Below, one piece after another: positions 1-62,496 of a stretch of 64,000 nucleotides of DNA. The stretch lies in IMG/VR virus record IMGVR_UViG_3300021400_005359. One strand, written 5' to 3'. Both the position numbers and the translations under genes were made by a program. This DNA is from an uncultured virus (IMG/VR IMGVR_UViG_3300021400_005359) (taxonomy: Duplodnaviria; Heunggongvirae; Uroviricota; Caudoviricetes). The stretch's first letter is position 1. Every line of letters starts with the position of its first letter. The notes under the pieces were generated by a model. That model did no database searches. It was not told the DNA's origin and saw nothing but the letters and a program-made list of their open reading frames with translations.

Positions 1-1431
1 AATTTTATCTATTTTCTTTTTACCATAACCTTTAATTTCACAGATATCTTCTTCTTTATCAGAAATATTGTAAATATCCTGTATGCTTGTGATAAAACCT
101 CTGTCATAAAGGTCTGAAATAGTTTCCTCTCCAAGACCATTAATATTAAGAGCATTTCTTGAACAGAAATTAATCAAAGACATCTTAACTTGTGCAGGAC
201 AGTTAGTTCCAGTACAGAACAAATTCTCTCCAATAAACTCTGTTTTAGAACCACAAACAGGACAAGTTTTTGGATACTGAATCTTTTTAGCTGTTCCATC
301 TGTTGGACTACTAACAACTGAAGTAATCTTAGGAATAACATCGTTACTCTTAATTACTAAGATATTACTGTTAATCATTAGTCCCATTTTTTCAATAAGA
401 TTGTAATTATTAAGAGTTGCTCTAGTGATTTCAACATCATCAATAATAATCTTATCAAAAATTCCAACAGGAGTAATCTTACCTGTCTTACCAACTTGGT
501 CATCTACTGACCTAAGAGTTGTAGAAGCCTCTTGAGCTTTAAACTTATAAGCAATACCCCATCTAGGCCATTTACTTGTATATCCAAGTTCTTCTCTTGT
601 TTCATAGTCATTAGCTTTAAGAACCATACCGTCAATCTGATAAGGAAGAGTTTTCCTAATTTTGTGTTCGTAGGATGAAATATAATCCATAATTTCATCT
701 ACCATAGTATCACTATACTTAAAAAGCTTATTAGGAACTATTTCAAAACCAAGAGAAGAAACCCAATTTAAAGCATCTGTATCATTGTTGAAAGTATCAA
801 GTTCTGTAACAAGGTCAAAAATCTTAATAATCATACCTCTATCAGCACAAATAGAAGAATCAAGCTGTCTAAGTGTACCAGAAGCAAGATTTCTTGGATT
901 AGAATACTCGCCATCTACATTAATTCTTTCAAACTCTGCTATAGGCATTAAAGCTTCGCCTCTAAGAACAAGTTTATCTTTATAAGATATCATTTTTGGA
1001 ACATTCTTAATTGTAAGAACATTATGAGTAACAATTTCTCCAACATAACCATTACCTCTTGTTGTAGCACAAGAAAGTTTACCGCCTTCATATTCTAAAA
1101 CAATTGTAAGTCCATCAAGCTTTTCCCCTACGGTAATATCTCCTTTTATTGTATTTACAAATTCAGCAATACCATCTCTTGTTTTTGTCTTTTGCTGAGA
1201 AAGCATAGGAGTTTCGTGTTCTTTCTTTTCAAGCTCACTAACAAGAACAGTGTTGATTTTCTGAGAAGGAGATTCAGGAACAATCCAATCAGGGTGCTCT
1301 CTTTCAAGAGTTAAAAGTTCAAAATATAAATCATCATATTCACCATCACCGATTTCAGGAATTCCAGCCTCATAAAGTTCATCGTGTCTTGTAATTTCTT
1401 TCACAAGATATAAATATCTAGAATTATCCAT
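1..1431 (-). CDS. ligA: NAD-dependent DNA ligase (3' end runs off the window; missing from the ORF track)
   Basis: Manual translation from ATG at 1431 (SD GGAGG at 1436-1440): MDNSRYLYLVKEITRHDELYEAG...EYDDL...HETPMLSQQK...GEKLDGLTIVLEY...TRGNG...NPRNLASGTLRQLD...CPVCGS...LFCTGTNCPAQ. Contains the KxDG adenylation motif and the C4 zinc finger. Confidence 0.95.
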   Translation of the reverse strand, partial: MDNSRYLYLVKEITRHDELYEAGIPEIGDGEYDDLYFELLTLEREHPDWIVPESPSQKINTVLVSELEKKEHETPMLSQQKTKTRDGIAEFVNTIKGDITVGEKLDGLTIVLEYEGGKLSCATTRGNGYVGEIVTHNVLTIKNVPKMISYKDKLVLRGEALMPIAEFERINVDGEYSNPRNLASGTLRQLDSSICADRGMIIKIFDLVTELDTFNNDTDALNWVSSLGFEIVPNKLFKYSDTMVDEIMDYISSYEHKIRKTLPYQIDGMVLKANDYETREELGYTSKWPRWGIAYKFKAQEASTTLRSVDDQVGKTGKITPVGIFDKIIIDDVEITRATLNNYNLIEKMGLMINSNILVIKSNDVIPKITSVVSSPTDGTAKKIQYPKTCPVCGSKTEFIGENLFCTGTNCPAQVKMSLINFCSRNALNINGLGEETISDLYDRGFITSIQDIYNISDKEEDICEIKGYGKKKIDKI

Positions 1432-7652: not shown

Positions 7653-8576
7653 TTATTTTTTACTTTTTAAACTAAAAGAACCAAAACCTAAAGCACTTCT
7701 TCTTTTTTCTCTCTTATCTTCAACTTTAACAGTTTCTTTTCTTACTTCATTTGTCTTTTTCTCTTTTTCATCAAAGATAATCTTACCGTTCATATCAGCA
7801 TCAACTACATCATATAAAGAAAGAAGAGCTTCATAATCAAGGTCAGAACCCTTATATTTATCAAATACTACAACAGCAAGGTCTTCTGGAGTATATTCTG
7901 TTAATACACTAACGTCATAAATCTCATTAACTATCAAAGAAAAATTATATTGACCAAGCTGATAAGCAAGAATATTTATCTTTTGAATTAAAGAAACAGT
8001 TCTCAACTTGTATACAAATTCCTTTATGTTTCTAATTTTCATAGGAGATGCAGTTACTTTAGGAATAGAAGATACAAATTTAGGGAAATTCTTTATAATC
8101 TCTGGGAATTCATCAAAAACAAGAGAATAATTTAAAAAGTTCCTAAAAATATAAAGATATGTCTGAGTAATAATCTTTTTTCTCGCAGCTGTATCTTTTC
8201 TCTTTTCATCCAATAAAGCTTTTTCTTTCTCTCTTAAAGTATTATCCTTAGCAAATCTATCCTTAGATAGTCTAGCAAAGGTTTTTAAATCAAAATGTCT
8301 AGAATTAGAAGCTTGTTCAATAACTTTACTTGCTTCACTTTCTTTGTTAGGAGCAACCGATTCCTTAACTTCTTCTTTAGGAGTTAAGTTAATTTTCTCC
8401 AACTTCTTATCTTTAGAAGTTTCTTTGCTAATTTCATTAACAGTATTAATTAAGTTTTCTTCTTTTTCTTTTTCAAAAGGAAAAAATTTAACGTTTTTAC
8501 TTCTAACATTATGATTATCATATTTTTTTAAATAAGGCTTTTGTTCTTCTAAAACCTCAGCTAATAAATCTTGCAT
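7653..8576 (-). CDS. Hypothetical charged cytoplasmic protein
   Basis: 307-aa ORF with AAAGGA SD; last gene of a three-gene minus-strand operon. Confidence 0.7.
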   Translation of the reverse strand: MQDLLAEVLEEQKPYLKKYDNHNVRSKNVKFFPFEKEKEENLINTVNEISKETSKDKKLEKINLTPKEEVKESVAPNKESEASKVIEQASNSRHFDLKTFARLSKDRFAKDNTLREKEKALLDEKRKDTAARKKIITQTYLYIFRNFLNYSLVFDEFPEIIKNFPKFVSSIPKVTASPMKIRNIKEFVYKLRTVSLIQKINILAYQLGQYNFSLIVNEIYDVSVLTEYTPEDLAVVVFDKYKGSDLDYEALLSLYDVVDADMNGKIIFDEKEKKTNEVRKETVKVEDKREKRRSALGFGSFSLKSKK

Positions 8577-8590
8577 AAAAGTCCTTTCTA

Positions 8591-9436
8591 TTACAAAACA
8601 AAGTTTCCTTCACTAGTTTCGTAATAAACCTTAATATTAAAATTAGGGTCGTGCTCTCTAATAAAATTAAGAAGAGCTTTTTCATTGTTTTCTGTATGAG
8701 GTATCTCAGTTGACATAAAGTAATAATTTACTAAAATACCAGTTTTTGCAGGATTCACCTGAAAATAACAAACTAAATAATATTTAGGAGTCTTAAACAA
8801 ATAAGCAATAGGGTCATCAGATGTTAAATCATTTAAATCTACTATTTCAGATTTATAAGAGAAAATTGGTTCTCCAAAATATTCAATAGTATTTGATAAC
8901 AAATCAAGATACTGTTCATTTAAGACTGAAGCATCTTTATTTTCAAAATCCCAAATATTTGAAAGATATAAACTACAAGAATCACCATAAGAATCTCTAG
9001 GACATCTAACCTTTATAGGCATCCATTTCAAACCAAGATATTCTATTTCTTCCTCAGGAAATGGAGCCTCTTCAGCTAAACTAATCATTCCGAATTTGTA
9101 TCCATCAATTTGAGGAAGTTTTTCTGTATAAGTAAGAAGGTCTGGGTCATCAAGTTCTGTTTCAATATCTTCCCAAGAAACATATGTTTTTACAGGATTA
9201 CCATTTTCATCAAGTTTTATCTCTTCTGCTTCTTCCCCTTCCTGAAGGTCAAGTTCTTCTGAAACAATGAAATCTTTATTTCTTGTTTCATCAAGAGAAA
9301 CTTCTTCTTCTCCCATATTCTTTATAAGACCAGATAATTGTTCATCTATTTTAGTAGAATCAGTTTTTGTACCACAAGAAGATAAAAGTAGAACAAATGG
9401 TATGCATAATAGTAATATTAAATATTTTCTTTTCAT
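8591..9436 (-). CDS. Lipoprotein of unknown function
   Basis: Signal peptide with lipobox LSS|C; AAGGAG SD. Confidence 0.75.
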   Translation of the reverse strand: MKRKYLILLLCIPFVLLLSSCGTKTDSTKIDEQLSGLIKNMGEEEVSLDETRNKDFIVSEELDLQEGEEAEEIKLDENGNPVKTYVSWEDIETELDDPDLLTYTEKLPQIDGYKFGMISLAEEAPFPEEEIEYLGLKWMPIKVRCPRDSYGDSCSLYLSNIWDFENKDASVLNEQYLDLLSNTIEYFGEPIFSYKSEIVDLNDLTSDDPIAYLFKTPKYYLVCYFQVNPAKTGILVNYYFMSTEIPHTENNEKALLNFIREHDPNFNIKVYYETSEGNFVL

Positions 9437-9447
9437 AAATAAACTCC

Positions 9448-10329
9448 TTAAATAAAAGGTATTATTAAATAAGGATTTTCACATCCTTTTTTCCTTATAA
9501 ATAATATTGAATTTGAGCTAAAATTATACTTAATATTATTTTTATCTAATTTTATAGCATTTCCATTAAATTCTCCAGCTCCAGAAATATTAATTCTACC
9601 ACCAATATAAAAATTTTTTATAATATCATCATTTATTTCAGAATTCAAAATTACATTTACAACTGGGAATAATGCACTATCGGAAACATCTTCTCCAAAA
9701 TATTTATAATCTTTGTTGTCAAGATAATTAAATATAAATTTATCAAAAGCTTCTTTATATGAATAGTTTTCTAAATTCATATCTTTAACATAAATGAGTT
9801 CATCACCTTCATTATCAAACAAAGATAAACTATAATTATCTTTATCTAAATAATAATTAACAGAAACAACTGCAGAATTTGCAGCATCACTACCAACCAT
9901 AAGTCCAAAATAATTATCAATCATTTCAAACTGAGAAGGGAATGTAGACATCTTTGTAAAATAAGAATAAGAAATATTCTTATCTTTAGGAATACCTTTT
10001 AAAATATCACTATCAGTTTTATAAAAAGCATTTAAATCATTTTTAGTTTCATCAAAACTTTTATCAAAACTATTAAAATAATTAGAATCCCAAAACAAAG
10101 AACTATATTTATTAAAAGAAGAATCTACATTTTTTAAGTTATAAGAAGCATAAGAATCAAAAATCATATCTTTTTGAATTTTAGTATCTTCACTATAAGT
10201 AATTGTAAATTTGTTTTTATATTTATTTATATCTCTGTTTTTAAAATAAAAAAAGATAATGCCACACAGACATAACAAAAGAACAATTAGAATGATAATC
10301 TTTATTTTTACGCTTAAACCTTTTTTCAT
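9448..10329 (-). CDS. N-terminally membrane-anchored hypothetical protein
   Basis: 293-aa ORF with basic N-terminus and hydrophobic IIILIVLLLCLCGIIFFYF; GGAG SD. Confidence 0.7.
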   Translation of the reverse strand: MKKGLSVKIKIIILIVLLLCLCGIIFFYFKNRDINKYKNKFTITYSEDTKIQKDMIFDSYASYNLKNVDSSFNKYSSLFWDSNYFNSFDKSFDETKNDLNAFYKTDSDILKGIPKDKNISYSYFTKMSTFPSQFEMIDNYFGLMVGSDAANSAVVSVNYYLDKDNYSLSLFDNEGDELIYVKDMNLENYSYKEAFDKFIFNYLDNKDYKYFGEDVSDSALFPVVNVILNSEINDDIIKNFYIGGRINISGAGEFNGNAIKLDKNNIKYNFSSNSILFIRKKGCENPYLIIPFI

Positions 10330-10411
10330 AAAAAATCTCCAATCTAAAATTAATTCAAACTTATTATATATTAGTTTTAAATTTTTTTCAAAAATAGGTA
10401 GTTTTAAGCAT

Positions 10412-10654
10412 AAAAAAAAGCTCTTGAAGAAGAGCTTGAAAGTCGATATATACGCAAGACTTAAAGAAGTCCTATAATATCAAGCCATCGATAAGGGAAA
10501 ACCCTAATCGCTAGCGACCTGTTATTGTATGAACTGGTTTAAGCACCAATCCACAAGATAACTACTGAATAACTTCAGTAAGTATCGAGAGCCTCTCGAA
10601 AACAGGTCAAGCTAAGTAGCTTGATGAAATTCCTCAGTTTTTAATATCAATGAT
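10412..10654 (-). ncRNA. Candidate structured non-coding RNA (about 240 nt), family not recognised
   Basis: GC-enriched intergenic island with nested stems (10479-86/10618-25 and 10516-23/10601-08 enclosing three hairpins). Mismatches resolve to G-U on the minus strand. TATAAT at 10666-10661 and U-tailed terminator at 10437-10412. Confidence 0.6.
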
Positions 10655-10800
10655 TAATATATTATATAAAGAAAAGAACAATATTATTCTAAATTTTATA
10701 AAAATTTTAAACTAAAAAATAAAATACCAAAATTTTTATATATAACTAAAAAAAATCTATTATAAAGAATAAAAAATTTGTTTAGAGAGGTTTTTAAAAA

Positions 10801-13353
10801 ATGTCTGAAATTTATATAGATATTGACAAATATATCAAAAAAGAAGAAGATATGGCTCTAGATAAATACGAAGAAGACGAAGAGATTACAATAGGTCTTG
10901 TTCCATATAAAGAAATAAGTTACAAATATGATTCTGGATACGGAGCATATGCTTGTGAACAAATTATGGAAAAAGATGAAATGCCAGAAACTTTTAAAAT
11001 TAGTGGAAATTTTATAACTCAACTCATAATTGGACAAACATATGAAGCTAAAGGAAAAGTACAAGTTTACAATAAAAAGAAACAATTAAAAGTTGACGAA
11101 ATAAAGAAAATTACGCCTAAAACAGTAAGAACTATAAAACTTTTCTTAAAAAGCTTAGATGGTATGGCTCCATTTTCTGATTTAATATATGAAGAATATG
11201 GAGAAAATGCTATAAATGTGATAAGAACAAATCCTCTTGATTTAAAAAAACTTTGTCCTGCTATATATGATGCTCAAGCTCTTGGTTGGCAAAAACAATT
11301 ATTAGAAATGTCTGATTATCAAGAATATATGACAGATTTAATAAACTTTGGAATGAAACCAATCCAAGCAAAACAATTTTTTGATAAATATAAGGAATTA
11401 TCAGTTGAAAAAATAAAACAAAATCCTTATAGATTAATTGGAGAAATTAAAGGATTTGGTTTCTTAAAATGTGACACAATAGCTAAGAATATAGGTTTTC
11501 CACTTGATTCAGATTCTAGAATATCTAATGCAATCGTTTATATATTAAATACTGCTCAATATGAAGGAAACACTTATATGACAGAAAAAGAACTTTTGTC
11601 TAAAGCATCTGACCTTCTGGACGTAAAACTTCCAGTAAGAGATATGAAAGCATTTTTCAAACAGAATGAAAATTCTAAAAAAGCTTTATATAAACTCGGA
11701 AATATTACTTTTAATATTGATATGGAAGAAATTAGAAAAGCAGTTTATGACTATGATAATGCTGTTTATAAAAAAGATAAAGAAGAATCAAAAATAATTC
11801 TTTTTTCTATTCCAAAAGAAAAAATTTTAGACCAAATAAATATTTTAAAAGTTTCAGGAACTATTATCATAGACGAAAAACACGGACCAAAGAAAATTTA
11901 TGATAAATATCTATATACTTGTGAAGAGTTTATAGCTAAAAAGCTTTATGATATTGAAAATTTTTCAGAACCTATAGATGATAATATAAATATAGAAGAC
12001 CTTCTTAACAGGTATCTTGATAAAAAGAATATAAAACTTGAAGAAATGCAGTATCAAGCAGTAATTAATTCAGCATCTACCTATGGTGGATTCTCAATTA
12101 TAAATGGTAGTGCTGGTTGTGGTAAAACTTTCACATTAAATATAGCTTTAAAACTTATAGAAACTATATATGAATATAAATATGGATATTTTGAGCCAAT
12201 GATTCTTGCTCCAACTGGTAGAGCAGCTAAAGTAGCAATGAACGCTACAAAGAGACAAGCATCTACAATACATAAAGCACTTCGTCCTCAAACAGACGGT
12301 GGATTTTTCTTTAATGCAATGAACAACCTTCCTTTTAATTGTATAATCGTAGACGAAACATCTATGCTTGATGTTGAAATGGCTAGATACTTATTTGAAG
12401 CAATTTCAAGAAAAACAAAAGTAATATTTATCGGAGATACTAAACAGCTTGCATCAGTTGGACCTGGAAATGTACTTAGAGATATTATTAATAGCAATCA
12501 TTTCAAAGTAACAACTTTAAATGTAGCAAAAAGACAAGGAAAAGATTCTGGAATTTACAAAAATGCTACAAGAATTGTAATGGGAGAAATGATTACTTCT
12601 GAAACAGAAACAAAAGATGCTTACGTATTTAATTCAAAAGAAAATTCAATAATTATTTCAAAAGTTTTATCTTTATATGAGTCTTTATATAAACAATTAA
12701 AACTTGAAGAGATTCAACTTCTTGTTCCTCAAAAAGGTGGATTACTTGGAACAAATTATATGAATTTCATATTACAAGATAAATTCAACCACGAAAATAA
12801 TGAAATAAGAATTTTAAATAAACAAATTTCTGTTACGCTTGAAAATGGCAATTCAGCAAAATATGAACTTTACTTTAAGAAAGGTGACAAAGTAATAAAT
12901 ACTAAAAATGATTATGACCTTCCTTGGTATGTATTAAAAGATGGGAAACTTGAATTAGAACCAAATGGTCTTGCTGGAGTTTCAAATGGTGAAACAGGGA
13001 AGATAATAAAAATAATTCAGTCAAAAGATGAAAACAGAAACATTGTAAATAGAATCGTTGTTAAATACGATGATAAATACATTGTTTACGTTAACGACTT
13101 TGAAAATTTAGACCACGCATATGCAATGACAATTCACAAATCACAGGGTTCTGAATGGCCAGCGGTAATAATGCCAATTACTTTTGCAAGTTATAGGATG
13201 CTCGAAAGAAACCTTTTATATACTGGATATACTAGAGCAAAGAAATGGATTGCTGTTGTAGGAGATACACAAGCAATAAAATATGCAATAGATACTGAAA
13301 AATCTATAGAAAGACAAACAGGATTACTTGATAGATTAAATGAATTATTTTAA
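10801..13353 (+). CDS. recD2: ATP-dependent RecD2-like SF1B DNA helicase
   Basis: N-terminal OB/HhH region (NPYRL...GFGFLKCDTIA), Walker A GSAGCGKT, LAPTGRAA, IIVDETSMLD, GDTKQLASVGPG, HAYAMTIHKSQGSEW, RNLLYTGYTRAK. Confidence 0.95.
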   Translation: MSEIYIDIDKYIKKEEDMALDKYEEDEEITIGLVPYKEISYKYDSGYGAYACEQIMEKDEMPETFKISGNFITQLIIGQTYEAKGKVQVYNKKKQLKVDEIKKITPKTVRTIKLFLKSLDGMAPFSDLIYEEYGENAINVIRTNPLDLKKLCPAIYDAQALGWQKQLLEMSDYQEYMTDLINFGMKPIQAKQFFDKYKELSVEKIKQNPYRLIGEIKGFGFLKCDTIAKNIGFPLDSDSRISNAIVYILNTAQYEGNTYMTEKELLSKASDLLDVKLPVRDMKAFFKQNENSKKALYKLGNITFNIDMEEIRKAVYDYDNAVYKKDKEESKIILFSIPKEKILDQINILKVSGTIIIDEKHGPKKIYDKYLYTCEEFIAKKLYDIENFSEPIDDNINIEDLLNRYLDKKNIKLEEMQYQAVINSASTYGGFSIINGSAGCGKTFTLNIALKLIETIYEYKYGYFEPMILAPTGRAAKVAMNATKRQASTIHKALRPQTDGGFFFNAMNNLPFNCIIVDETSMLDVEMARYLFEAISRKTKVIFIGDTKQLASVGPGNVLRDIINSNHFKVTTLNVAKRQGKDSGIYKNATRIVMGEMITSETETKDAYVFNSKENSIIISKVLSLYESLYKQLKLEEIQLLVPQKGGLLGTNYMNFILQDKFNHENNEIRILNKQISVTLENGNSAKYELYFKKGDKVINTKNDYDLPWYVLKDGKLELEPNGLAGVSNGETGKIIKIIQSKDENRNIVNRIVVKYDDKYIVYVNDFENLDHAYAMTIHKSQGSEWPAVIMPITFASYRMLERNLLYTGYTRAKKWIAVVGDTQAIKYAIDTEKSIERQTGLLDRLNELF

Positions 13354-14384: not shown

Positions 14385-14397
14385 TCCTCTTTTTTTT
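14366..14397. terminator. Bidirectional intrinsic terminator
   Basis: AAAAAAAGAGGATT...AATCCTCTTTTTTT spanning the 14384 stop and abutting the pilin stop. Confidence 0.85.
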
Positions 14398-14605
14398 ATA
14401 ACTGAAATTCGTTAGTTCCAGGAACCTGAATGCTTTCTACAGTTTTACCTGCACAACCATTGAACCATTTATACACATAATGACCAAATACAAAAAGTCC
14501 AGCTCCAACACCAAGAGCAACAGCAATTCCAACAACCTGCTCTACGTTTGGACCACCACATTCATTTGCAAGTGCGTTGTTTACTCTATTAAGAAATCCT
14601 TTCAT
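14396..14605 (-). CDS. Flp/type IVb-like prepilin (copy 2); start revised to ATG 14605
   Basis: MKGFLNRVNNALANECG|GPNVEQVVGIAVALGVGAGLFVFG: short leader, Gly at -1, Glu at +5, then a hydrophobic helix. The GGAGG SD precedes ATG 14605. Confidence 0.75.
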   Translation of the reverse strand: MKGFLNRVNNALANECGGPNVEQVVGIAVALGVGAGLFVFGHYVYKWFNGCAGKTVESIQVPGTNEFQL

Positions 14606-14733
14606 TTTTTTAACCTCCAAATATTAAATATATTATATAATATTCTTTTAATTGATTATAAATTACTTTTTAAGAAATAATAAAAAAGGAAGTCAAACGA
14701 CTTCCTTTTTTTGTATAATTAATTTACAATTAA

Positions 14734-14952
14734 TTACCATCCCTTAGTTGTAAATGATTCACCCTTAGGAGTCTCGATATCAGTTACAGTCTGACCAGCA
14801 CATCCGTTGAACCACTGGAATACACTTCTACCAAAAAGGAAAAGACCAACACCAACTGCAAGAGCAACTGCAATACCCATAACCTGCTCTACGTTTGGTC
14901 CTCCACATTCATTTGAAAGTGCGTTGTTTACTTCATTAACAAACTTCTTCAT
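14734..14952 (-). CDS. Flp/type IVb-like prepilin (copy 1)
   Basis: MKKFVNEVNNALSNECG|GPNVEQVMGIAVALAVGVGLFLFG; paralog of the adjacent gene, with its own GGAGG SD and a terminator at about 14682-14711. Confidence 0.75.
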   Translation of the reverse strand: MKKFVNEVNNALSNECGGPNVEQVMGIAVALAVGVGLFLFGRSVFQWFNGCAGQTVTDIETPKGESFTTKGW

Positions 14953-18398: not shown

Positions 18399-18581
18399 TT
18401 AAAAAAGCTCCTTTTATATTAATTCATTCTTTATTATATCTAAAATGGGAAAAAAATCAATAAAAAAAGAGGCTTAAAAAAGCCTCAGAAAAAACATAAT
18501 AAAAGTAGGTAAAACCTTAATGCTCGACAGAGCAGATGTTTTTTTATAAATAAAAAGCTTTAAGAAGCTTTAAAAATCATC

Positions 18582-18866
18582 TTAAGCCTCTTCAGAATCC
18601 TCAAGAGCCTTCTCGTATGCACCAAGAATTGCACCAACGAGCTCATCTCTTGCTTCCTTAGTGATAGGATTGAAGATGTTTGAATACTTCTTCTCTCCGC
18701 CAGACTCATACTGTCTCTGAGGCATTGAAGCGAACAGACCGTTCTTTCCTTCAACAACTGCGATATCGTTAAGAACGATAGCATCCTCAATTACAACAGA
18801 CGCATAAGCCTTTCTTGCACTTTCAGGATTCTTTACAAGTCTCATAGAGGTAACATCAATCTTCAT
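18582..18866 (-). CDS. spoVG: SpoVG-family nucleic-acid-binding protein
   Basis: KAYASVVIEDAIVLNDIAVVEGKNGLFASMP...YSNIFNPITKEARDEL..AIL.AY matches the SpoVG pattern. AAAGGAG SD; terminator at 18462-18486. Confidence 0.92.
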   Translation of the reverse strand: MKIDVTSMRLVKNPESARKAYASVVIEDAIVLNDIAVVEGKNGLFASMPQRQYESGGEKKYSNIFNPITKEARDELVGAILGAYEKALEDSEEA

Positions 18867-23868: not shown

Positions 23869-23872
23869 GAAT

Positions 23873-23906
23873 AAAAAAGGGAAGCAAAAAATGCTTCTCT
23901 TTTTTT
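23873..23906 (+). terminator. Intrinsic terminator
   Basis: AAAAAAGGGAAGCA-AAAAA-TGCTTCTCTTTTTTT. Confidence 0.8.
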
Positions 23907-23969
23907 GTAAAAATTTCAATATAAAAGAATATATAAGACAGTTTCAAAATATAATAAATTATACTAACG

Positions 23970-24301
23970 TAAATGGTAGGAATTATTTTTAATGCAAAAG
24001 ATTCATTTATCTTTTCGAGTTATCGGTTAATTAAACTTTATTTTACTAGTTAAAAATGCTAAACATCTTTTGCACCAAAGAGTCGCAAAAGCTTACGCTT
24101 TTAACTTAAAATCGCCAGTTCTTTCTGGCTTAACTTTTACTAATTTTGCGAAAGCAAATATTTAAAAACAAACTTACGATACGTATCTCGGCACAGGCAT
24201 CCGTTTGATGCAAAATGAAACCATATCGACTTGTTTATTTGCCGTTTTTTCTTAGTCGAAACAAAAAAAGAGTTTCCAAAGGCCTAGGAGCTCTTTTTTT
24301 T
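23970..24301 (+). ncRNA. Candidate structured non-coding RNA (about 330 nt), family not recognised
   Basis: Multiple stems (23993-24002/24065-74; 24114-18/24125-29; TTTGC-GAAA-GCAAA 24145-58; 24197-201/24207-11; 24226-31/24254-59). TATAAT at 23950-55. Terminator 24261-24301 whose stem needs G-U pairs on the plus strand. Confidence 0.5.
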
Positions 24302-24307
24302 GTTGCC

Positions 24308-24520
24308 TTAATTTTCCTCAATAAAGACATTACAGTCGCTATTTTCTTTAAAAGCTTTTTCAAGCTTTTCTAATTTCTCAGGATTTGTAATTTTTAAAAT
24401 TTCTCTATATTCTTCCCAAGGAATAGCAACCACATTTTTATCAGAAATTAAAACTTTTTCATTCAAATCTTCTTTGTTTTCAAACATATCCAAAAATTCT
24501 TTAAATGTAAATTCTTTCAT
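24308..24520 (-). CDS. Small hypothetical protein
   Basis: 70-aa ORF with GGAGG SD. Confidence 0.65.
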   Translation of the reverse strand: MKEFTFKEFLDMFENKEDLNEKVLISDKNVVAIPWEEYREILKITNPEKLEKLEKAFKENSDCNVFIEEN

Positions 24521-24712
24521 AAAACCCTCCAGAAATCGCTTTTTCTAATAAAATATTAATATAAAATTTTCAATTTTTCAATAATTTTTGCAAAATTATT
24601 AAAATTCGCTTGTTTTTTTAATAATATATGTTATAATTAAATTAAGATAAATGAATTAAAAGAAATTTTAGTTTGTATAATAAAGTATAAGAAATGTTTT
24701 AGGAGGAATTTT

Positions 24713-25839: not shown

Positions 25840-28800
25840 TTAAAGCTCTAAGTATTTAATCGTCTTGATTAATAGATAAGATATCTCAGCTCTTGTTAAC
25901 TCTCTAGTTCCATTTCTATCATCATCTGAATCAATAATACCCATAGACATTAAGTGGATAGCTTCTTGAGCACAATCACTAAGTCCAGTTGGAGCACTAA
26001 GTCCTGATTCATTATGATATTGGTCATAAAGAATAGTTGCTGAAATAAGTTTTACAACTTCCTTAAATGTAACAGCTTTATTAAGTGTATATGTAGAAAT
26101 TGTATCATCTACTTCTTCTTGACTCATATTAATTAATATGTTCTGAGATGAATAGTAATCGTAATCTTTTTCAGATAAGTTAAGTGTTGTAACAATCTTA
26201 TTAATCTCAAAATCACTATCATATATAAGTCTAATTCTATTAAGCATTGTAAGGAACTCTTTAGTAGTCATCTTGTTTACAGGTTTATACTTGTTATCAA
26301 GATAATTTCCAATAATTCCTTTTTCACAAAGAGTTTCAATGTTACTTCTAGCATCAGAACCAATAATATCTGTGAATTTAGATATGTATGGAGTAAGAGC
26401 AATTACCTCAAATTTAATATTTCCAAGACTATCATCTACACAGTTAATTACATCAATTTCTTTTCTTCCAGAAGATGTAAATGAAATAGTTCCCTTCTTA
26501 TCAGTAACAACTCCATCTGATACATTGTCAACTACACACATAGAAACATCAGCTTCTGTGCCTTTAAGTGCAGTTGTAAGATTTATAGTATCTTTTAGTT
26601 TATAAGTATAAGCAAAGTTTTCTTTACTTAAGTCTATTTGACTCTTAGTATCTTTTATACTATCTACAACAAGAACATAAACATTAAGTTCTTTTCCGTC
26701 TTTTACAAATCTAATAGTTCCAATTCCAGGTCTATTAGCAGAAACCATACTTCCTGTTCTTGTTAAGATATCTCCATCAGCATACCAAGTAAGTCCGCTG
26801 ATATCACCAAATTGTTCAGTAAGCTTGTACTTAAATGCAAGTGAAACATCAAGGTCACTACCTGTCTGAACAACTATAGACCTATGAGATTTACCAGTAT
26901 TCAAAGCTCTAACATTTAATCCAAGATACTTATTAGTCTGTGTATCATAGAAACTAATAAATCCATCACCAGTTAAGTTCATATACACTTTGTTGTTCTT
27001 AGTATAGAAACTTACTGAATCAGACTTATTCTTTTCTGATAAGTAAAGATTTGAAGCATCAAGTCCATATGTAGAAGCTATATAAGCATACCAATAAGCA
27101 AGTGTCTTAGTATCTGTACTACTAATATATAAATGGTCTTTAGGATTCAAAGACTCATACAAAACTTTGTTTGAACTTAAGTTACTTCCTGTGCTAACTC
27201 TAAGTCTAGTTACATTTCCAGCAGCATCTCTAACTTTTACAAGGACTGTTTCTTTAGAAAGAATAACAGTATTGTTATTAGCAATGTAATTATCTCCAGA
27301 ATTTCTAGAACCTTCAATTGAGAAACTATAAGGAGTTTCATCAAATCCACCAAGGTCATAAGCTGAAACATAAAGTCTGTTCTTAGAGAACCAAACCTTA
27401 GTAATTACAGGAGCTATTGTGTCTTTCATTCTAACAAGTCCATTGTAAAGAACAAGATAAACTTCTTCACTAGCTTCCTTTACTGCTGAAATTCTGTATT
27501 TATAAAGAACAGAATCTTCAAGTCTAGGACAATCAATAGAAGATGCTTCATCAAGTCTAATCTTATAAACAACTCTTCCTGTATTATAATCAAGGATTTC
27601 GAATAAGTAGTCATATTCTTTCCAATCAATATCTTCAGGAATATCTGAAGGAACAGGAATAGGTTGGTCAGGATTTACAGGTGTAGGAGTATCAGAAGGT
27701 GTTCCTGAAGGTGTTCCAGAAGGTGTACCTGAAGGAGTTCCACTAGGAGTTCCTGAAGGTGTACCACTAGGATTTTCAACTTCTTCAGAAATATCACCAG
27801 GAGCCTCACCCTTGTAAACATAATTATCTTTAAAGATATAGAATGTTTCTTCGGTTTCAGCATCTAAAGTATCTATCAAAGATACAGTAATATTCATAGG
27901 AATATTAATTTCCTGAATACCAACTCTCTTGTAAATCTGTTGATTAGCTTTAATTGTCTGACCAGCTGGAATGCTAAGCCATTTACCGATTGAATTGTAT
28001 CCTTCGTAATCTGATGTAATACTCATATTATCAAGAGGAGTAAATCCATAAGCAAATGTTCTTAAGTTTCCATCAGGGTCAATACCTTCTACATATAAAT
28101 GTCCTTTATATGTATAAACATTTTGAATAACAGGAGCGTTATTCTTTATTTCAGGGTCTTCACTTCCACTAAATCTATTTTGAGCTTCAGGATTTTCAGG
28201 AGTTCCATATACAAGCTGTGTCTCACTAGAAATAATAACAGTTTGACTAGAAGTATTTCCTGCAGCATCTACAGCATAAACTGTAAGTCTAGTAGGAACT
28301 TTAATTGCTTGTTGAGCAGCTCCGTGCCAAATAATAGTTCCCTTAGGAATAACTTCGTTTTCAGCAAATGAAATAGTCTTACCTGAATCATCTGTACCAG
28401 TTGTTACACCTGAAGATTCAGTGTCGTTAAGCCATTGATATCCATAACCTGTAACAGCTAAGTTATCTGTAGCTTCAATATATAAAACACCATCCATAGC
28501 GTAAACAGCTTTAATTAATGGAGCAATCTTATCTGTCTGTCCAGAAGAATCTCTTGCTTCAAGAAGCATTTCGTAAATAGTCTGACTTACTGTTCCAAAA
28601 AGAACTGAATTATCTTTATCTTCTGAAACATCAACAGTAACAATATCTGACTGGTTTCTTGCTATATCGTAAACAGAAAGTTCTACTTTTGCTTCAGCAA
28701 TAGTTCCATCTTCATTTTTAACTGCTTCCATAAATCCACCAACTTGACCAAATGAAGTATTTGTTACAGTTCCTTCATATTTCTGAGACTCAGGAAGTAA

Positions 28801-31800
28801 ATTTCCATCACTATCAAAGTCAGCGTTTGTAAGTCTTCTACCATATTTTGTTCCAGCATTAAGAACAAGATTTCCATTAACAGTTACATAAGAAATATCT
28901 TTTGATGTAGTCTTATCTTCTCCATCAACGAAAGATAAGTAATCAAATACATAGTTAACACCTTGAGAAGAATTGATTCCTGAAGCAGGAATACCATTTT
29001 CTTCATCTGGATTATCTGTTGCAACTATATAAATTTGTCCTTTATATAAGAATGCACCAGTAATTTCAGGTTTCTTAGTATCTCTTCCGTTAGCATCAAT
29101 AGCTGACTTAATTTCATCAATAATACTCTGAGAAGCATATCCAGCAATAAAGAATTCGTGCCAATCTGTAGTATTATATAAATCTTTTCTCGTTAATGTC
29201 CAAGGACCAGTAATCTTAGTACTTTCTAAACCAGCACCATCAACTGCTCTTACATTTACAACAACTTTTCCTGTATTCATATCTACAGGGAATACAAATT
29301 CATTTGAATTAAGAGGAATACTTATCTCATTAACGTTATCGCCTCTCTTATAAGTATAAGTATTTCCCATTCCATCTGTAAAACTAAAGTCTATATCAGT
29401 TACGAAAGGTTCTAAAATATCAACATAGTATTTACTAATACCTGTTACATCAGAAACAACAATATTTCCGTGTTCATCATAAGAAGATTCAGCAGCAACT
29501 TTACTTCCATTAGAATAAACATATCCATCAGTCCCTATAGTTCTACCTTCGAAAAGTTGAATCTTATATCCATTCCAAATTGAGTTATCTTCTGTCTGAT
29601 ATGTGTGAATGCTCTTACTATCAACTGTACTTGCTAATTGACTAAATGTTTTTGTATATTGTTTTTCAAGATTTAATAAATCTTGACTAGATAATCTCTT
29701 TACAAGTCTAGTAAATGAAACAGTGTCTGAAATATAATCTGTTTCTACTAAATTAAGATTTGTCTTAACATCATACATTTCGCAAAGAGAAACCATTCTA
29801 AATGTTTCATCTGCTCCAGCAGGGTTAGTTGTATTATTTCCAGTATTCTTTGTTTTCGCTTCAGAAAATCTTACTTCCCAAGTCTTTGTCTCTCCGTTTT
29901 CAGTAAATGTAAACTGTTTAACTTCAGGACAAGTCATTTGATAAGAAATAGCATTTCCGCCAGCAGGAGTATATGTATAAGTGATAGTTCCACTTAAATT
30001 TCCAGTAACAGTTCCGTGATTAGCATCTAAAGTGATATTTGAATCACTATCTGTAACTCTACCCTTTGTTGCAATTGTATATGTATTAAGAGGTCTCTTT
30101 GTTGTAATAGAAAGTTTCATATCAGGATTTCCAGAAGAAATTTCTTTATACATCTTTCCATTAACAATGTAAAGATTATCACTTGATATATATTTGTTTC
30201 CATCTACATTTATAACAGTGTCTATATATTCACTTCCGAGTACTTCACCTTTAGATGAAAGTATCTCAACAGTCTTAGGAGTATTATCATAATCAACAGA
30301 AGAATCAAGTCTACTGTAAAGAACTTTATATGTTTTTCCGTCTAAAGTATATTCTTTAACAATAACATCATTGTTATCTGTTATCTTATAATACTTTCCA
30401 TTTGAACTCTTATATGTTGCAATTCCATCACCATCAACAGTTGTTAAATCAACAGTCTTGGCATCTTTATCTGAAATCTTACTGTAGTAAACAGGAACAT
30501 TATCAAATGTATATTCCTTATAAACTCTCTCACCTTCACTGTTAAATATAGTTTCATAAGCTCCTGGGTCAGTAGCACTAATCTTAAGAGTATGATTTAT
30601 CATATAAACAGCATCGATAATAGGAGGAATAACATCGTTTTGTTCAATAGCTCCCATATACCAATCAGAACCTTCAGGTGTTGCAAAATTACTTGAATCC
30701 TTCCAAGAAGGACTATTTAAATCAAAAGCAATACCTTCACTTGATACAGCACCAGAAATTACATAAACAAGGTTTCCAAAGTTTGGAATATAGAATCTAA
30801 GTTCATCAATATCTTTAGCAACCTTACCTTTATAACCATTGTTGTTATCAAAAGGATTGTAAATATTTCCACAACTATCAAAGAAAGTAATCCAATAGTT
30901 GCTTGTATTTTCTGTAGGCTGAATATAATCAAGTCTCTTTGTTATAGTCTCAGGGTCAATAAATGTACCAAGCATAGCACTTATTGAAGAATCAGAGAAT
31001 GTAACATTTTCATATTTAGAAGCACTTATTGTAGAATTCTCAATGGCCTCAATATCTTTATTTATCCACTTGATATCATCTGCTGAACAAATTCCAACAT
31101 TTCTGTTTTCATCAGTTCTTGATGATGTCTCAGATAAAGTATAATCCTTTGCTATAACACTACCAGTTTCAGCATCAATTGTAGCTTTATAAGCTTTTCC
31201 TTGAGGTCTAGAATCAACAACATTAAGCTGTGCATCATAATATCCATAATTTCCAGAAGGAGTAACAACCCAACCAGTTTCTTCTCTAAACCAGTTGCCA
31301 AGAGAATCTTTAGTTCCCATAGTAACAACTTTTCCGTTGTAATCAGTGTATTTTCCTTCTGAAGTATATTCACTTATAGAACCTTCAGCTTTAAACTGAA
31401 CAGCTTTGTAATACTTATGAGTATGAGAAGGGTCACTTACTTTTTCTCCAGTAGGAGTGTAGTAATAATCAACAGTTTCTCCCATATCTGACCATTTCCA
31501 AGTCCAAGTACCTTCATATTCTGTTCCTTCACTATCATAATAAACTTCAACAGCATTTGAAGGAATTTCTCCTGTAGTTTGAGAAGGTTCTCCTACTTTG
31601 TTATAAGTAAAGTGTCCTTCTTCTGAAGTTGAGAAATCTTTACTATATCTAGTAACTCTTCCGTTTGGATGTTGAGAGTAGTAATATAAAACTTGTCCAT
31701 TCTGAGCTTCTTCAAAAGAAGTATCAAATGAAGAAATCTTTCCGTTCTCAGCAGATATAGAAATATAAAGCTGAGGACTCTCCCACTTTCCAGTAGAAGT

Positions 31801-34800
31801 ATTCCATTCTTGCCTATAAATAGTCATAGGATAATCATTAGCTACAATGTCTTTAGCCCCTGAACCAGTACTTCCGACAGAAGAACTAAATTTGAAAGCA
31901 TCCTTAGACATATATGCAAAGTATGTTAAGTTTCCTGCTTCATTCTTTTCCTGAGTAACAATTACATAAGGATAAGCATCTGTACCAACAATAATTTCAT
32001 CATATAGACTTGTTGGCTTTGTAGCTGAAATATCAGCAACAGATAATGCCTCAGAAACTATAAGTGACTGAGAGAATGAACTAGAAATAACCTCATTACC
32101 AAATTCATCATTTATATTGACATTAGAATAAATAATTGAGTTTATAGCATCTAATGCTTCAAAATACATTCCATCTTCTGATACATAGTTGTTTAAGTAG
32201 TTGTTCTCACTTGTCCAAGAATTTGAATAGAAAGTCTTTAATACTAAACCTCTAATATCTGAACCACTACGTACAGAATTATTAAATTTAATACCATTTT
32301 CAGTAATTGTAAGACCACCAACAATAGAAGGGTCATACTCTAAAGCTTGGAAGCTTCCATTTGATTTTTCATAAATAATGAAGTTGTATCCATTAGAAGC
32401 ACTATAGATAGGAATATATCTAAAGTAATCAACCTTAGACTTCCATTCTGTAGGCCAAGGCTCAACACCTTTCCAAGCTGAATTTCCATCATTAGTATAT
32501 CTTAAACGAGATTCAAAAGATGCTCTATCATAAGGAATGAAATCTGAATAAGAAGCAACATCTTCTGTAATCTTCTTCCAAGTATTCTGAACTAATGCAT
32601 ACCATTCTCCACTAGGAAGTTGAACATCGTCACCATCAACAGTTATAACTGAATCAGAAACAAAAGCATAAAAACCAATAGTATTCTTTAAGAATATGTA
32701 TTGTTTTTTATTTGAACCAACAACTTCTGTTAAACCAGGAATACCAAAAGTTCTAATCTTTGGAGTTCCATCTTCATAGAAACCACTCTTACTAAGAATA
32801 ACATCATTTTTATTTCCCTTTGAAACAAGGTCATAATTTATAAAATCTATAGAACTTAAGTTTGCTTGAGTTGGAAGCATAATAAGTCCATCAGATAATT
32901 TCTCTATATAGTTTTCATAGAGCCAATTCTCAGAAACATATCTGAAAATTTCAATATTTACTGAATCTGAACTAAATACTAACTGTCCAGAATTGTAAAC
33001 AGGCTTTTCGCTCGTGTAGAATAAAAGCTGATATTCACCATAGTTAACTAATGTAGCAAAAGGACTTACCATTCCGTTAACACTATCTGGAAGTTCAGGA
33101 TATCTTCCTTCTACTGGAAGTGTTGTAACTAAAGGTTCAACATTTAATGCTTCCCAGTTTTCCATTATATCAGATGAATAATCAGGAGTTAAATACATTT
33201 CAACAAGACTTTCAGTTCCATTATTCCTTAAGTTTCCTGATAAGCTTACATTAAATGTGTTCTGATAAATTGAACCATCCTTTGTAACACTACCAATAAC
33301 TGAGAAAGAATTGAAAGCATCAATGTTTTTAACTTTGCTTCTATAAAGAGTAATGTTATCAGCTTTAAGTTTAAGATTTGAATATTCACTACCATCATCA
33401 ATTGATACAAGTTCTAATCTTTCTGAACTTGAAGATGATTCAGCATAATAAATACTCTTTCCATTTTCAGAAACATAAACATTATCACCTGTTGAATTTA
33501 ATGAAAGTTTAAAATCAACTCCAACAGTTTTCTCTTCAATATAAGGACTTGTAACTTGTCCATATAATCTATAATTTGTAATTCCGTTCAAAATTTCAAT
33601 ATGTGTCATATCATCACTAGAAGAAGGATTAGAAAAGCTTGTCTTAGAACTGAAAGCTTTCAAGTTGATTTCCTTCAAGAAGTTCTGACCACTTAAAGAA
33701 TCACTATTATAAAATACATCGTTAACATAATAAGCACCATTATTTAAAGTGAAAGTTGACTGATAATTGTAATCCATATAATCAGTATAGAGCATAAGTC
33801 TATTTGAAGCATTATTATTAAAGTCTTTTAAATAAGAAAGTGCATTTACATAAGATGCATCATTTTTATCATTAGTAAATCTAATAAGTACATAAATATT
33901 CTTACCAACTTTTATATCGCTATTTGTACTGCAAGTAAATATAGCAGGAAGCTTAATTACAAAAGTTCTAAGTTTTGAAGAATCTCCTTCGTTAAAGTTA
34001 CTAGGAGCAAATACTCTAACACTTGAAATTTGCTTTGAATAGCTATCTGCAAGTACAAATGAAATCTTGTAACCATCTTCTGTTTCATAAGAAATTTCAT
34101 CAGAATTTTCACTTCTAGTAATAGAAGGATAAATCTGTCCATTTGCACCAAAGCTTGCAACTATAGCATTTTGAGTTGAGTTAGAATCATCTTGTGTACC
34201 ATAAAAAGCTACAGGAATTTCATCACCACTTTCAAGATATGTAAAACTTGAAGGAAGTTGGATTGCTTCACCATTTGTATAAGCTTCAACACCACTAGAA
34301 GCAATATTGAATTCATCATAAGTAAAATCAGCAAGGTTGTATTCACCAAAACTTGTATCAGTATTTAATAATGCAATAGCCTTGAAGAATCTACTAATTG
34401 AATAATCTGTATCGGTTACATAAGAACCATTAATATTGTACTGAGGAAGATATGTTACTTCAGAAGTATCAAACTTCTCATAGTTAATAAAGTTCTTATT
34501 TATAATCTTTTGACCTTCAACAACTGTTCCTGTTTCAGTTTCATAAGTTTTTCCATCTGGAGAAGTCTTTCCACCATAACCTATAATATATTCTCCATAG
34601 ATACTTGGAACATACGATGATAAACCAAAACCATCAATGTAACCAACGACTCCATAAGAACCACCAATAGCATCAACAGTATAGAAGTTTGAAGTCATAT
34701 CTAAAATCTGACCATATACCTTAGAAGTTCCAACATTTGAAATCTTACTATCCTCTTCAATAGTAGATGTTGTACGTTCTTGCCAAGCCATTGAACCTTG

Positions 34801-62300: not shown

Positions 62301-62496
62301 GAACATTAACATTTAATGTTCCAGTCGAATCCCAAGTAGATGTTATCATCCAGGAATCGTGACCACCAACTGCTGAACCTTGAATACCAGCATATACAGG
62401 AGTTGGAGCCATAATATCTAATGGTAAAAATGAGAAGATAATTATAAAGCATACAATTTTAAAAAATATAGATTTTTTTAAATTATGAATCTTCAC
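59344..62496 (-). CDS. VirB6/TrbL-like polytopic T4SS membrane protein with large N-terminal extracytoplasmic domain and Gly/Ala-rich C-terminal tail
   Basis: Signal peptide; central 5-6 TMs with YIMRAIMIALLTASAPLFIVSMAF...FDNWLKEISANIFMQSVHAF; adjacent to VirB4. GTG start with AGGAGG SD. Confidence 0.8.
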   Translation of the reverse strand: MKIHNLKKSIFFKIVCFIIIFSFLPLDIMAPTPVYAGIQGSAVGGHDSWMITSTWDSTGTLNVNVHEDSNSMGDSYEAKQLKKKTKGNQKYLDWTVYSALVAGADPFKLNDAIAEGDDKFGGKNLTDTGLVYSFPSYDRDKNDSHSFDVDMKRAQEISSTLGSNMNTLISSVKDMVDFKNTVVAVNPTVDYVAASIQIVDELKGVADGNVHELFGNKIIFCGADNYGDWVPGNAVYSSDGYKVIDEEGNLLAYIFNENDGDEAHKAGRPSKADSGVIWAMPKGYLDPTTGKQFADGKDPYGVRNDNMPDSESKGDAVWVTIFSIANYATAQAQYSDVTTEGAGAGEMGWVEETIYKMFYGIYTGLTNALGLQTIEQLIYNGGARSNASYEAGMMSASWWGTVLKYHLIFQIVAWMIIAVAVAKVLIQINFSTINPSLRMSLMETLQKFVIVGFSLALCIPFIRLLATFNNLIVDLFQTQADGGLMGASSFGIAGIIILLGFLGITVVMNGIYIMRAIMIALLTASAPLFIVSMAFSGPKQKGLFDNWLKEISANIFMQSVHAFSFAFLFDVMGNTNGLFTKLVIYFSLLPIIDSFRQLIFGNAGSFAVSQGKAGAQTAFAAIENKALGVAAGGANIAAGALTKKYGGDNPAISDLNVNRDIGATNGVGGGGKSGSGGAGSVGKDAAVGNLSTAGKALKENGSGKARVAGHALSGASKAISAYKGTGGIMGNAATRANLGDVAGSVKASENYGNSVTDDIGTAAADIGQAIDNRNERMEAKTGKDEAKAMNNLSSEEMKDVANYRAQEQAVSSAKDNLKQLKADKASKADIKQAKQDLKQAKSYLSNSKSSLSSDAAKAVKAGDDHSKYVRATGKAAYVNDFSNGKNEVMTYDDRAVGGEISSQFKNCYEVKDQNLADKVNTVMAKDRNSNEYHRFVRQDDGNGNISYKDIDNYDSRKDDNVSYNAEDFANQFEGAKSYMEIDPYSKQSAGAGRTTIQGGYNTNNESAERTMMETKKRGRDAANKKNIESLRNQKIYDKDNNQIGSMKANA

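Follow-up and report, generated by a model that had tools for sequence, protein, structure and literature searches.

A candidate stand-alone gene, divergent from recD2 in DNA from the ruminant gut, for a structured small RNA outside the described families

The locus and its predicted fold

The candidate gene analyzed here lies in a 64,000-nt stretch of DNA (this whole stretch is referred to below as the window) taken from the IMG/VR record IMGVR_UViG_3300021400_005359. It is a non-coding RNA (ncRNA) candidate on the minus strand, located in the intergenic region between the divergent gene recD2 and a membrane-protein operon, and the coordinates of its parts and of its neighbors are collected in Table 1. 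The content of guanine and cytosine (GC) across positions 10400-10649 is 0.33-0.41, against 0.09-0.21 in the flanks. An open reading frame (ORF) scan detected no minus-strand ORF of at least 20 amino acids (aa) within 10400-10670, which agrees with the statement of a preliminary description of this locus that no credible ORF was present. The candidate therefore lacks coding capacity, and it also carries an intrinsic terminator of its own. When the region was scanned for terminators, two were found, compared with 0.1 ± 0.3 in shuffled sequences. The terminator hairpin has an energy of -8.0 kcal/mol, and its helix forms with a probability of 0.91 in the ensemble of the full-length RNA.

Transcription would start from an AT-rich promoter, the -10 box of which is TATAAT, and would end at the RNA's own intrinsic terminator. 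From the asymmetry of the fold and from the gene signals we infer that the minus strand is the transcribed one, and the promoter and the exact ends are likewise predicted. On this basis, and on that of the results presented below, we consider it probable that the locus is a gene standing alone on the minus strand, and that its product is an abundant, structured small RNA of approximately 200-240 nt, probably acting in trans through its shape.

The folding of a 256-nt stretch of the minus strand was compared with that of 200 dinucleotide shuffles. Its minimum free energy (MFE) was -78.7 kcal/mol, against -52.3 ± 4.2 kcal/mol in the shuffled sequences (z = -6.36), and none of the 200 folded as well as the native sequence. 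The plus strand folded more weakly (MFE -62.1 kcal/mol, z = -5.02), with 16.6 kcal/mol less than the minus strand, and G-U pairs accounted for 10 of the 83 pairs in the minus-strand fold and for 1 of the 71 in the plus-strand fold. The strand argument of the preliminary description, which concerned the G-U pairs, was thus confirmed. Additionally, 200-nt segments from eleven of the window's intergenic regions, the larger ones, were scanned for folding, which gave 68 combinations of segment and strand. The core of the RNA, 10430-10629 on the minus strand, had the lowest z-score of them all (-7.9), while the best value elsewhere, among the 56 rows outside the RNA's own intergenic region, was -4.9.

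In the predicted fold, the 5' hairpin (H1) is followed by a four-way junction with three hairpins closed by stem P1, and then by two hairpins with U-rich tetraloops (H3 and H4). The apical part of H4 is UAGGACUU-CUUU-AAGUCUUG, separated from the basal stem by a 2x5 internal loop. H1 was also listed as terminator-like by the terminator scan, yet the contigs from RNA libraries described below cross it. All of the elements named in the preliminary description (the TATAAT box at 10666-10661, both stems, H1, the hairpins, the terminator and a direct repeat) were found at the minus-strand coordinates given there, and the MFE fold returned its inner stem enclosing three hairpins, the two later hairpins and the terminator.

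By contrast, the outer stem of that description, AUCAAGCU (10625-10618) with GGCUUGAU (10486-10479), was confirmed in its letters but not in its pairing. The probability per pair was 0.025-0.038 in the ensemble, in which the 5' arm forms H1 instead. A fold constrained to contain the outer stem lies only 1 kcal/mol above the MFE, and we regard this stem as possible, although not favored by the predictions. The two-state switch between the outer stem and H1 was not upheld either, given the ensemble probability of approximately 4% and the lack of a clear counterpart of the outer stem in the related locus presented below.

Several arms of these hairpins are repeated. The sequence UCAAGCU occurs twice in the window RNA, in H1 (10624) and in the 5' arm of the terminator (10439), and GCUUGA is present at 10612 and at 10485. 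Repeated arms of this kind, which in the related locus take the form UUCUU-AUUU-AAGAA, permit alternative pairings, which did not rise above chance in the tests performed. The hairpin motif CTTNTTYAAG, which is shared by H4 and the terminator and is found twice in the related locus, was not enriched in the window: 10 occurrences were counted against 5.4 ± 2.5 expected, and 9 of 100 shuffles reached 10.

Table 1. Features of the RNA locus and of its surroundings, by position in the window. X18, X19 and X20 are metatranscriptome runs; pair and helix probabilities refer to the predicted ensemble.
Feature	Coordinates	Strand	Details
Whole predicted transcript	10410..10654	-	approximately 240 nt; predicted start through terminator U run
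-10 box TATAAT, presumed promoter of the RNA	10661..10666	-	predicted start approximately 10654-10646
5' hairpin H1	10607..10624	-	UCAAGCU-ACUU-AGCUUGA; mean pair probability 0.89 (MFE helix)
Four-way junction	10516..10608	-	P1 closes hairpins a, b and c
Stem P1	10608-10601 with 10523-10516	-	GACCUGUU with AACAGGUC; eight pairs; pair probabilities 0.50-0.92
Hairpin a	10597-10587	-	MFE fold; helices of the junction hairpins 0.31-0.98
Hairpin b	10586-10557	-	MFE fold; helices of the junction hairpins 0.31-0.98
Hairpin c	10555-10528	-	MFE fold; helices of the junction hairpins 0.31-0.98
Hairpin H3, UUUU loop	10484..10515	-	GCUA.CGAU.AGGG-UUUU-CCCU.AUCG.UGGC; helix probabilities 0.88-0.98
Hairpin H4	10443..10483	-	basal stem UUGAUAU/AUAUCGA; helix probabilities 0.79 and 0.86
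Intrinsic terminator	10410..10437	-	AAGCUCUU-CUUC-AAGAGCUU, then U run; stem 10437-10418
Contig of run X18	10337-10643		307 nt; 4 differences
Contig of run X19	10435-10635		201 nt; 0 differences
Contig of run X20	10442-10642		201 nt; 1 difference
Separate promoter of the operon, TTGAAA-17-TATAAT	10363..10391	-	11/12 matches; best site in the scan of 10150-10900
Downstream three-gene operon	7653..10329	-	gene gaps of 11 and 14 nt
recD2, divergent	10801..13353	+	850 aa; Pfam HHH_RecD2, AAA_30, UvrD_C_2, SH3_13; anchor for related loci

A diverged relative and contigs from RNA libraries

RecD2 relatives were aligned (alignment A1), and the alignment was used to retrieve related loci. Among the 80 metagenome loci kept, only one, L015, proved to be a close relative, with a RecD2 67% identical to that of the window; the other full-length metagenome matches to A1 were at most 37% identical. 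The same search yielded only relatives of at most 39% identity in genome contigs and only partial matches of at most 36% identity in viral contigs, where RecD2 and the first operon protein (293 aa), used as single queries, also found no relatives. In L015 the gene order is that of the window: recD2, a long intergenic region, and a gene on the opposite strand that starts with a membrane segment. The intergenic region is strongly folded on the same strand as in the window (z = -7.87 against -5.18), contains a hairpin of nine pairs with a U run after it and, at the equivalent place, a counterpart promoter TTATCA-17-TATAAT (543-515), for which the promoter scan gave 10 of 12 matches.

At the level of sequence, BLAST with a word size of 7 and an expectation value (E) of up to 1 detected no similarity between the two RNAs. 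A covariance model was built from the window alone, comprising the core 10443-10608 with 62 pairs. This model matched L015 over its full length at 234-401 of the minus strand with 27.4 bits, the next best match having 8.3 bits, and the E of the L015 match was approximately 1e-8 within L015 and 2e-7 within 68 kb. The reciprocal model was made from the core of L015 with the structure predicted independently for L015 itself. Its top match in the whole window was exactly 10443-10608 on the minus strand (29.0 bits, E 5e-5), and the next best reached 15.5 bits.

The independent fold of L015 has the architecture of the window RNA. Its P1, with nine pairs (0.96), encloses three hairpins (0.90-0.98), and on the 3' side of the junction there are a hairpin with a UUUU loop, a CUU-AUUU-AAG hairpin and a terminator; the helices that correspond to those of the window have probabilities of 0.78-0.99. 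P1 of L015 is AACUUGUU/AACAAGUU, in which two of eight pairs are compensated and the other six are identical to the window. The counterpart of H3 also has a UUUU loop, with 7 of 12 pairs changed on both sides, and that of H4 reads UGUUCUU-AUUU-AAGAACA. L015 carries, in addition, approximately 100 nt of extra hairpins at the 5' side. It was also observed that UUCUU-AUUU-AAGAA is present twice in L015, once on the 5' side of the junction (414-439, minus strand) and once as H4 (247-264, minus strand).

In the model-fitted alignment of the two rows, 94.8% of the cells were paired. Both sides were changed in 20 of the 62 pairs, compared with 0-4 when the partners were slid by 1-3 columns and with 10.0 ± 2.4 in column shuffles. 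Sequence was kept between the two members only in P1 and the adjoining U run (ACYUGUUUU ... AACARGU), and elsewhere it was almost wholly changed. The helices are kept by compensatory changes, as judged from two sequences in a model-fitted alignment, and the architecture persists in one related element although the sequences are no longer similar.

The distribution of the RNA is narrow within the loci reached. A covariance search of the window and 94 loci under default filters returned only the window itself, the filters having missed L015. With the filters off, a model built from the two sequences gave 12 bits at best in 12 low-GC loci (98,232 bases), and it had no match in the five genomes behind loci L001, L002, L005, L009 and L010. 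Two further candidates were discarded: a strongly folded stretch in L002 (3651-3850, plus strand, z = -8.1), which was the only one to stand out upstream of recD2 in 12 distant loci, is made up of the last part of the upstream gene and its terminator; and a model match at 18541-18607 of the window (12.4 and 10.7 bits), which overlaps the SpoVG gene, was considered noise.

Three metatranscriptome runs from three studies (X18, X19 and X20) and one DNA run (X16) were compared with positions 9400-12400. This segment was found in at least 20 runs from 11 studies, the records of which are bovine, sheep and goat gut metagenomes. Each of the RNA runs contained a single long contig on the segment, and in every case it lay over the RNA. 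None of the three had a long contig listed over the flanking genes, an absence that carries no weight, since missing cover is no proof. The ends of the X19 and X20 contigs agree within 7 nt on both sides with no loose end listed, while the contig of the DNA run continues (10308-10669); that the shared ends are transcript ends is weakly hinted at by this agreement. Two within-species variants fall inside the RNA. The difference at 10453 in X18 is in the internal loop of H4, and the one at 10583, present in X18 and X20, turns an A-U pair of hairpin b into G-U; the X18 differences at 10379 and 10382 fall in the 17-nt spacer of the operon's own promoter. Expression of the RNA is therefore well indicated but not proven. 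Together with the reciprocal match of the covariance models in L015 and the absence of a match in Rfam 15, the contigs from three studies sustain the proposal of an undescribed ncRNA class that had been made from the letters of the locus.

Competing explanations and possible function

Several observations weigh against a stand-alone, conserved and shape-recognized RNA. The family consists of two members only, which makes the covariation evidence thin, and the pair counts were taken from a model-fitted alignment in which one row defines the structure, so that they are biased towards structure. In the loci searched, the more distant RecD2 genes had no relative of the RNA beside them. The plus strand of the window itself scores 24.9 bits with the window model because the stems are palindromic, and therefore part of the approximately 27 bits can come from the sequence of P1 alone. 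The promoter scan (10150-10900) listed no -35/-10 pair at the TATAAT of the RNA. Contigs reveal neither strand, ends nor level, and RNA libraries can contain DNA. The X18 contig, moreover, crosses the terminator down to 10337, 8 nt short of the downstream start codon, which fits read-through; some read-through past the terminator is possible.

The preliminary description had offered, as a second option, an attenuator for the downstream three-gene operon. As a cis-acting leader or attenuator of the riboswitch type, the RNA would sense a signal and set the passage through the terminator into the operon, whose products are a 293-aa protein that has a membrane segment at its N-terminus, a 281-aa lipoprotein carrying the motif LLLSSC and a 307-aa protein, none of them with a Pfam or PHROG family. 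The arrangement is compatible with this explanation, since the RNA lies directly upstream of the operon in the same orientation, L015 has the same order with a membrane-segment gene downstream, and the X18 contig is unbroken from the RNA through the terminator. A possible antiterminator can also be drawn, in which GGCUUGA (10486-10480) pairs with the 5' arm of the terminator (10439-10433) in 7 pairs, with -10.0 kcal/mol against -8.0 kcal/mol for the terminator hairpin. However, pairings as good were found in 62 of 300 shuffles for the window and in 33 of 300 for L015, that is, at chance level, and the pairing found in L015 is at a non-equivalent place. Between the terminator and the operon there is, moreover, a promoter of the sigma-70 type with 11 of 12 matches; in L015, a weaker site, TTGTTT-17-TATAAT, was seen by eye in the corresponding role and was not listed by the promoter scan. 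No Rfam riboswitch or leader family matched, and few nucleotides are conserved outside P1, unlike the cores that bind ligands. Because of the intervening promoter, the terminator probability of 0.91 and the lack of an antiterminator beyond chance, a stand-alone gene is favored over a leader, and we judge the attenuator to be unlikely.

A second alternative is a small RNA that regulates messenger RNAs of the element or of the host by antisense pairing. A stand-alone gene with a terminator hairpin and a U tail would be expected of such a regulator, and the sole conserved stretch, ACYUGUUUU / AACARGU, is short and could serve as a seed. This stretch is nevertheless buried in P1 (0.5-0.92), and approximately 240 nt with seven helices would be large for an RNA of the seed type. 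In a target search confined to the window, the best duplex with the 34 translation-start regions had -32.2 kcal/mol, against -29.4 ± 2.8 kcal/mol for shuffled sequences, of which 4 of 20 were as good. Recognition by shape is preferred to seed pairing because helices rather than nucleotides have been conserved, and we consider antisense pairing unlikely.

We infer instead that the stand-alone RNA would work in trans as a stable molecule recognized by its shape, with a protein partner or as a scaffold or sponge, and not by base pairing; this is the weakest part of the explanation. A bolder version of it can be put forward, according to which the RNA would be the first representative of a new structured-RNA class on giant plasmid-like elements of anaerobic Firmicutes. 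It would then be the RNA subunit or scaffold of a ribonucleoprotein encoded by the element, for instance in replication, transfer or host takeover, rather than an ordinary regulator, and the four-way junction and the hairpins with U loops would provide the recognized surface. We advance this proposal as speculation, and consider it rather improbable as it stands.

Under another explanation, the hairpins would act at the level of DNA, for instance as an origin or a single-strand initiation site that serves the element once it has been transferred by conjugation, or as an array of inverted repeats bound by a protein, and transcription would be incidental. Conjugation-type genes are present in the window (a VirB4-like ATPase, a TrbL-like membrane protein and a giant protein resembling cell-wall hydrolases), the hairpins are strand-specific, and the hexamer TAGCGA, which may resemble the CS-6 hexamer of ssoA-type origins, occurs in both members (10513-10508 in the window, 350-345 in L015). 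In the model alignment, however, the two hexamers are at non-equivalent positions. A search with blastn (word size 11, E up to 0.01) against 72,556 plasmid records, which include described types of origin, gave no match. The locus has a -10 box on one side and an intrinsic terminator on the other and is covered by contigs in three RNA libraries, and the 10 G-U pairs among 83 favor an RNA. A DNA-level element is thus very unlikely.

A miniature inverted-repeat transposable element (MITE) or a functionless cluster of chance palindromes is barely credible and already largely refuted: the 9-bp direct repeat TAATATCAA (10475-10483 and 10642-10650) noted in the preliminary description is indeed present twice and brackets most of the core, but 216 of 1000 shuffles of the region hold such a repeat, no second or dispersed copy of the locus exists in the window (the best other blastn match covers 31 nt of the AT-rich promoter part), the fold z-score is far beyond the shuffles, and a diverged relative retains both position and architecture.

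The surrounding element and comparison with known systems

The window has a GC content of 29%, uses TAA at 32 of 34 stops and shows strong AGGAG ribosome-binding sites. Most of its proteins have no family; the recognizable ones are an NAD-dependent ligase (LigA), a 5'-3' exonuclease, RecD2, FtsH, a deoxynucleotidase-like protein, an ADP-ribosylglycohydrolase and SpoVG and, of the conjugation type, a VirB4/TraG-like ATPase and a TrbL-like membrane protein. An origin from a phage was dropped, as PHROGs on 29 proteins detected nothing phage-like. The nearest named relatives of RecD2 and FtsH share replicons, namely a 721-kb Aneurinibacillus plasmid and a 739-kb Bacillus contig, and closer relatives are on contigs of up to 464,774 and 927,709 bases. 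RecD2 relatives are also carried, usually in two copies, by plasmids of 300-600 kb from Brevibacillus, B. thuringiensis, Paenibacillus, Clostridioides, Jeotgalibacillus and C. perfringens. As context, the window may be part of a giant plasmid-like element, or of a very small replicon, of an uncultured Firmicute from the ruminant gut, and it seems to belong to an uncharacterized family of giant plasmid-like elements in ruminant guts.

Several other features of the window were recorded. Two small minus-strand genes, 14396-14620 and 14734-14952, encode proteins of 74 and 72 aa that are 69% identical to each other, with a GC content of 0.43-0.46. Both proteins have a hydrophobic center and no Pfam or PHROG family, each gene is followed by a terminator, and one has a strong GGAGG site; at a guess, they could be pilin- or VirB2-like subunits of a conjugation apparatus. 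A row of giant ORFs, all of them on the minus strand (25840-35145, 42975-54176, 54392-59245 and 59344-62496), encodes proteins of 3101, 3733, 1617 and 1050 aa, and the VirB4/TraG-like ATPase comes next (62604-63893, minus strand). The 3733-aa protein has weak SLT, NlpC/P60 and GDSL matches, and the 1050-aa protein a weak TrbL/VirB6 match. The row and the ATPase look like a conjugation module of the Gram-positive type, of unusual size.

The SpoVG homolog (94 aa, 18582-18866, minus strand, Pfam E 4e-20) is located in a GC-rich island; SpoVG is a nucleic-acid-binding regulator of Firmicutes. The RecD2 relatives P0002-P0016 are 44-96% identical, and three of them, P0005, P0007 and P0008 (71-85% identical, 1146-1207 aa), align over 49-52% of the query and may be fused or extended forms of RecD2. 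A further stretch, 23869-24712, has 845 nt with no ORF of at least 90 aa and a GC content of up to 0.35, and it showed no fold signal (z of -2.9 to +1.4).

Taken together, these results describe a small RNA that is real, apparently expressed and conserved in structure, that belongs to no described family and that is carried by a little-known kind of large mobile replicon. Bacterial structured RNAs longer than approximately 200 nt with multistem junctions are uncommon, and those that have been studied are often components of ribonucleoproteins or catalysts. If the RNA were dedicated to such elements, it would provide a handle on their maintenance or transfer in gut communities; if it were only a lineage-specific small RNA, it would be a further entry for RNA family databases. 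It also serves as a worked case in which a GC-rich intergenic island in AT-rich mobile DNA marks a real RNA.

Known families were searched with the 4227 covariance models of Rfam 15, none of which reached its gathering score anywhere in the window. When E of up to 10 was allowed in 10250-10850, only two sub-threshold matches were obtained, both on the terminator hairpin: CRISPR-DR47, with 22.9 bits on the plus strand against a gathering score of 39, and SpF51, with 15.9 against 50. Positions 1-700 of L015 reached only 12-20 bits, against gathering scores of 60-100. ARAGORN detected no transfer RNA or transfer-messenger RNA (tmRNA), and blastn of the RNA against phage and plasmid collections had no match. 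Identification as 6S RNA, signal recognition particle (SRP) RNA, RNase P RNA, tmRNA, retron RNA, bridge RNA or omega RNA was dropped in the absence of an Rfam match. For the retron, bridge and omega types, partner genes were not found either, as Pfam saw no reverse transcriptase, TnpB, IscB or IS110 gene nearby. Since the RNA fails their models, it is not a member of the raiA, ROOL, OLE, 6S, SRP, RNase P, tmRNA, plasmid RNAIII, T-box or riboswitch families, and its own family is undescribed. The literature found consisted of general surveys of structured-RNA discovery, none of which, in the parts accessible, describes this RNA; the supplements of these surveys, which list hundreds of motifs, were represented by Rfam 15 as a proxy.

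The RNA is similar in size to 6S RNA and, like this and other abundant housekeeping RNAs of approximately 200-400 nt (SRP RNA, tmRNA and RNase P RNA), it is strongly folded and appears in libraries of total RNA. In place of the long, closed helix and central bubble of 6S RNA, it has a four-way junction followed by serial hairpins, and its 5' and 3' ends do not pair with each other. The motifs characteristic of SRP domain IV and of helix P4 of RNase P do not appear to be present in it.

A plasmid-like carrier, a terminator of its own and a stable structure are shared with the plasmid countertranscripts (Plasmid_RNAIII, RF00235, of inc18 plasmids). This link consists of a match in L015 only, with 18 bits against a gathering score of 60 and E 3.4, the window having no match. 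Moreover, the RNA is larger and branched, and it is not antisense to a recognizable replication-gene leader. With riboswitches and attenuators of the terminator type it has in common a structured domain with an intrinsic terminator behind it, placed upstream of a co-oriented operon, but it differs from them in the strong promoter that intervenes, in the lack of an antiterminator beyond chance and of a conserved core, and in having no Rfam match.

The nearest likeness in general form is to the raiA motif, ROOL and OLE, orphan structured ncRNAs that comparative genomics revealed in Firmicutes. The RNA fails the Rfam models of these three even at E of up to 10 and, unlike them, it has two known members, a single synteny and very few conserved nucleotides. 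With approximately 240 nt, it is also much smaller than ROOL, which has an average of 581 nt and was first observed in cow rumen data (PMC5737381). ROOL and GOLLD are often found on mobile DNA (PMC5737381). Like the raiA motif, ROOL and OLE, the RNA next to recD2 is built of multiple stems around a multistem junction, forms a long GC-rich intergenic island in an AT-rich genome, and is not clearly cis-regulatory.

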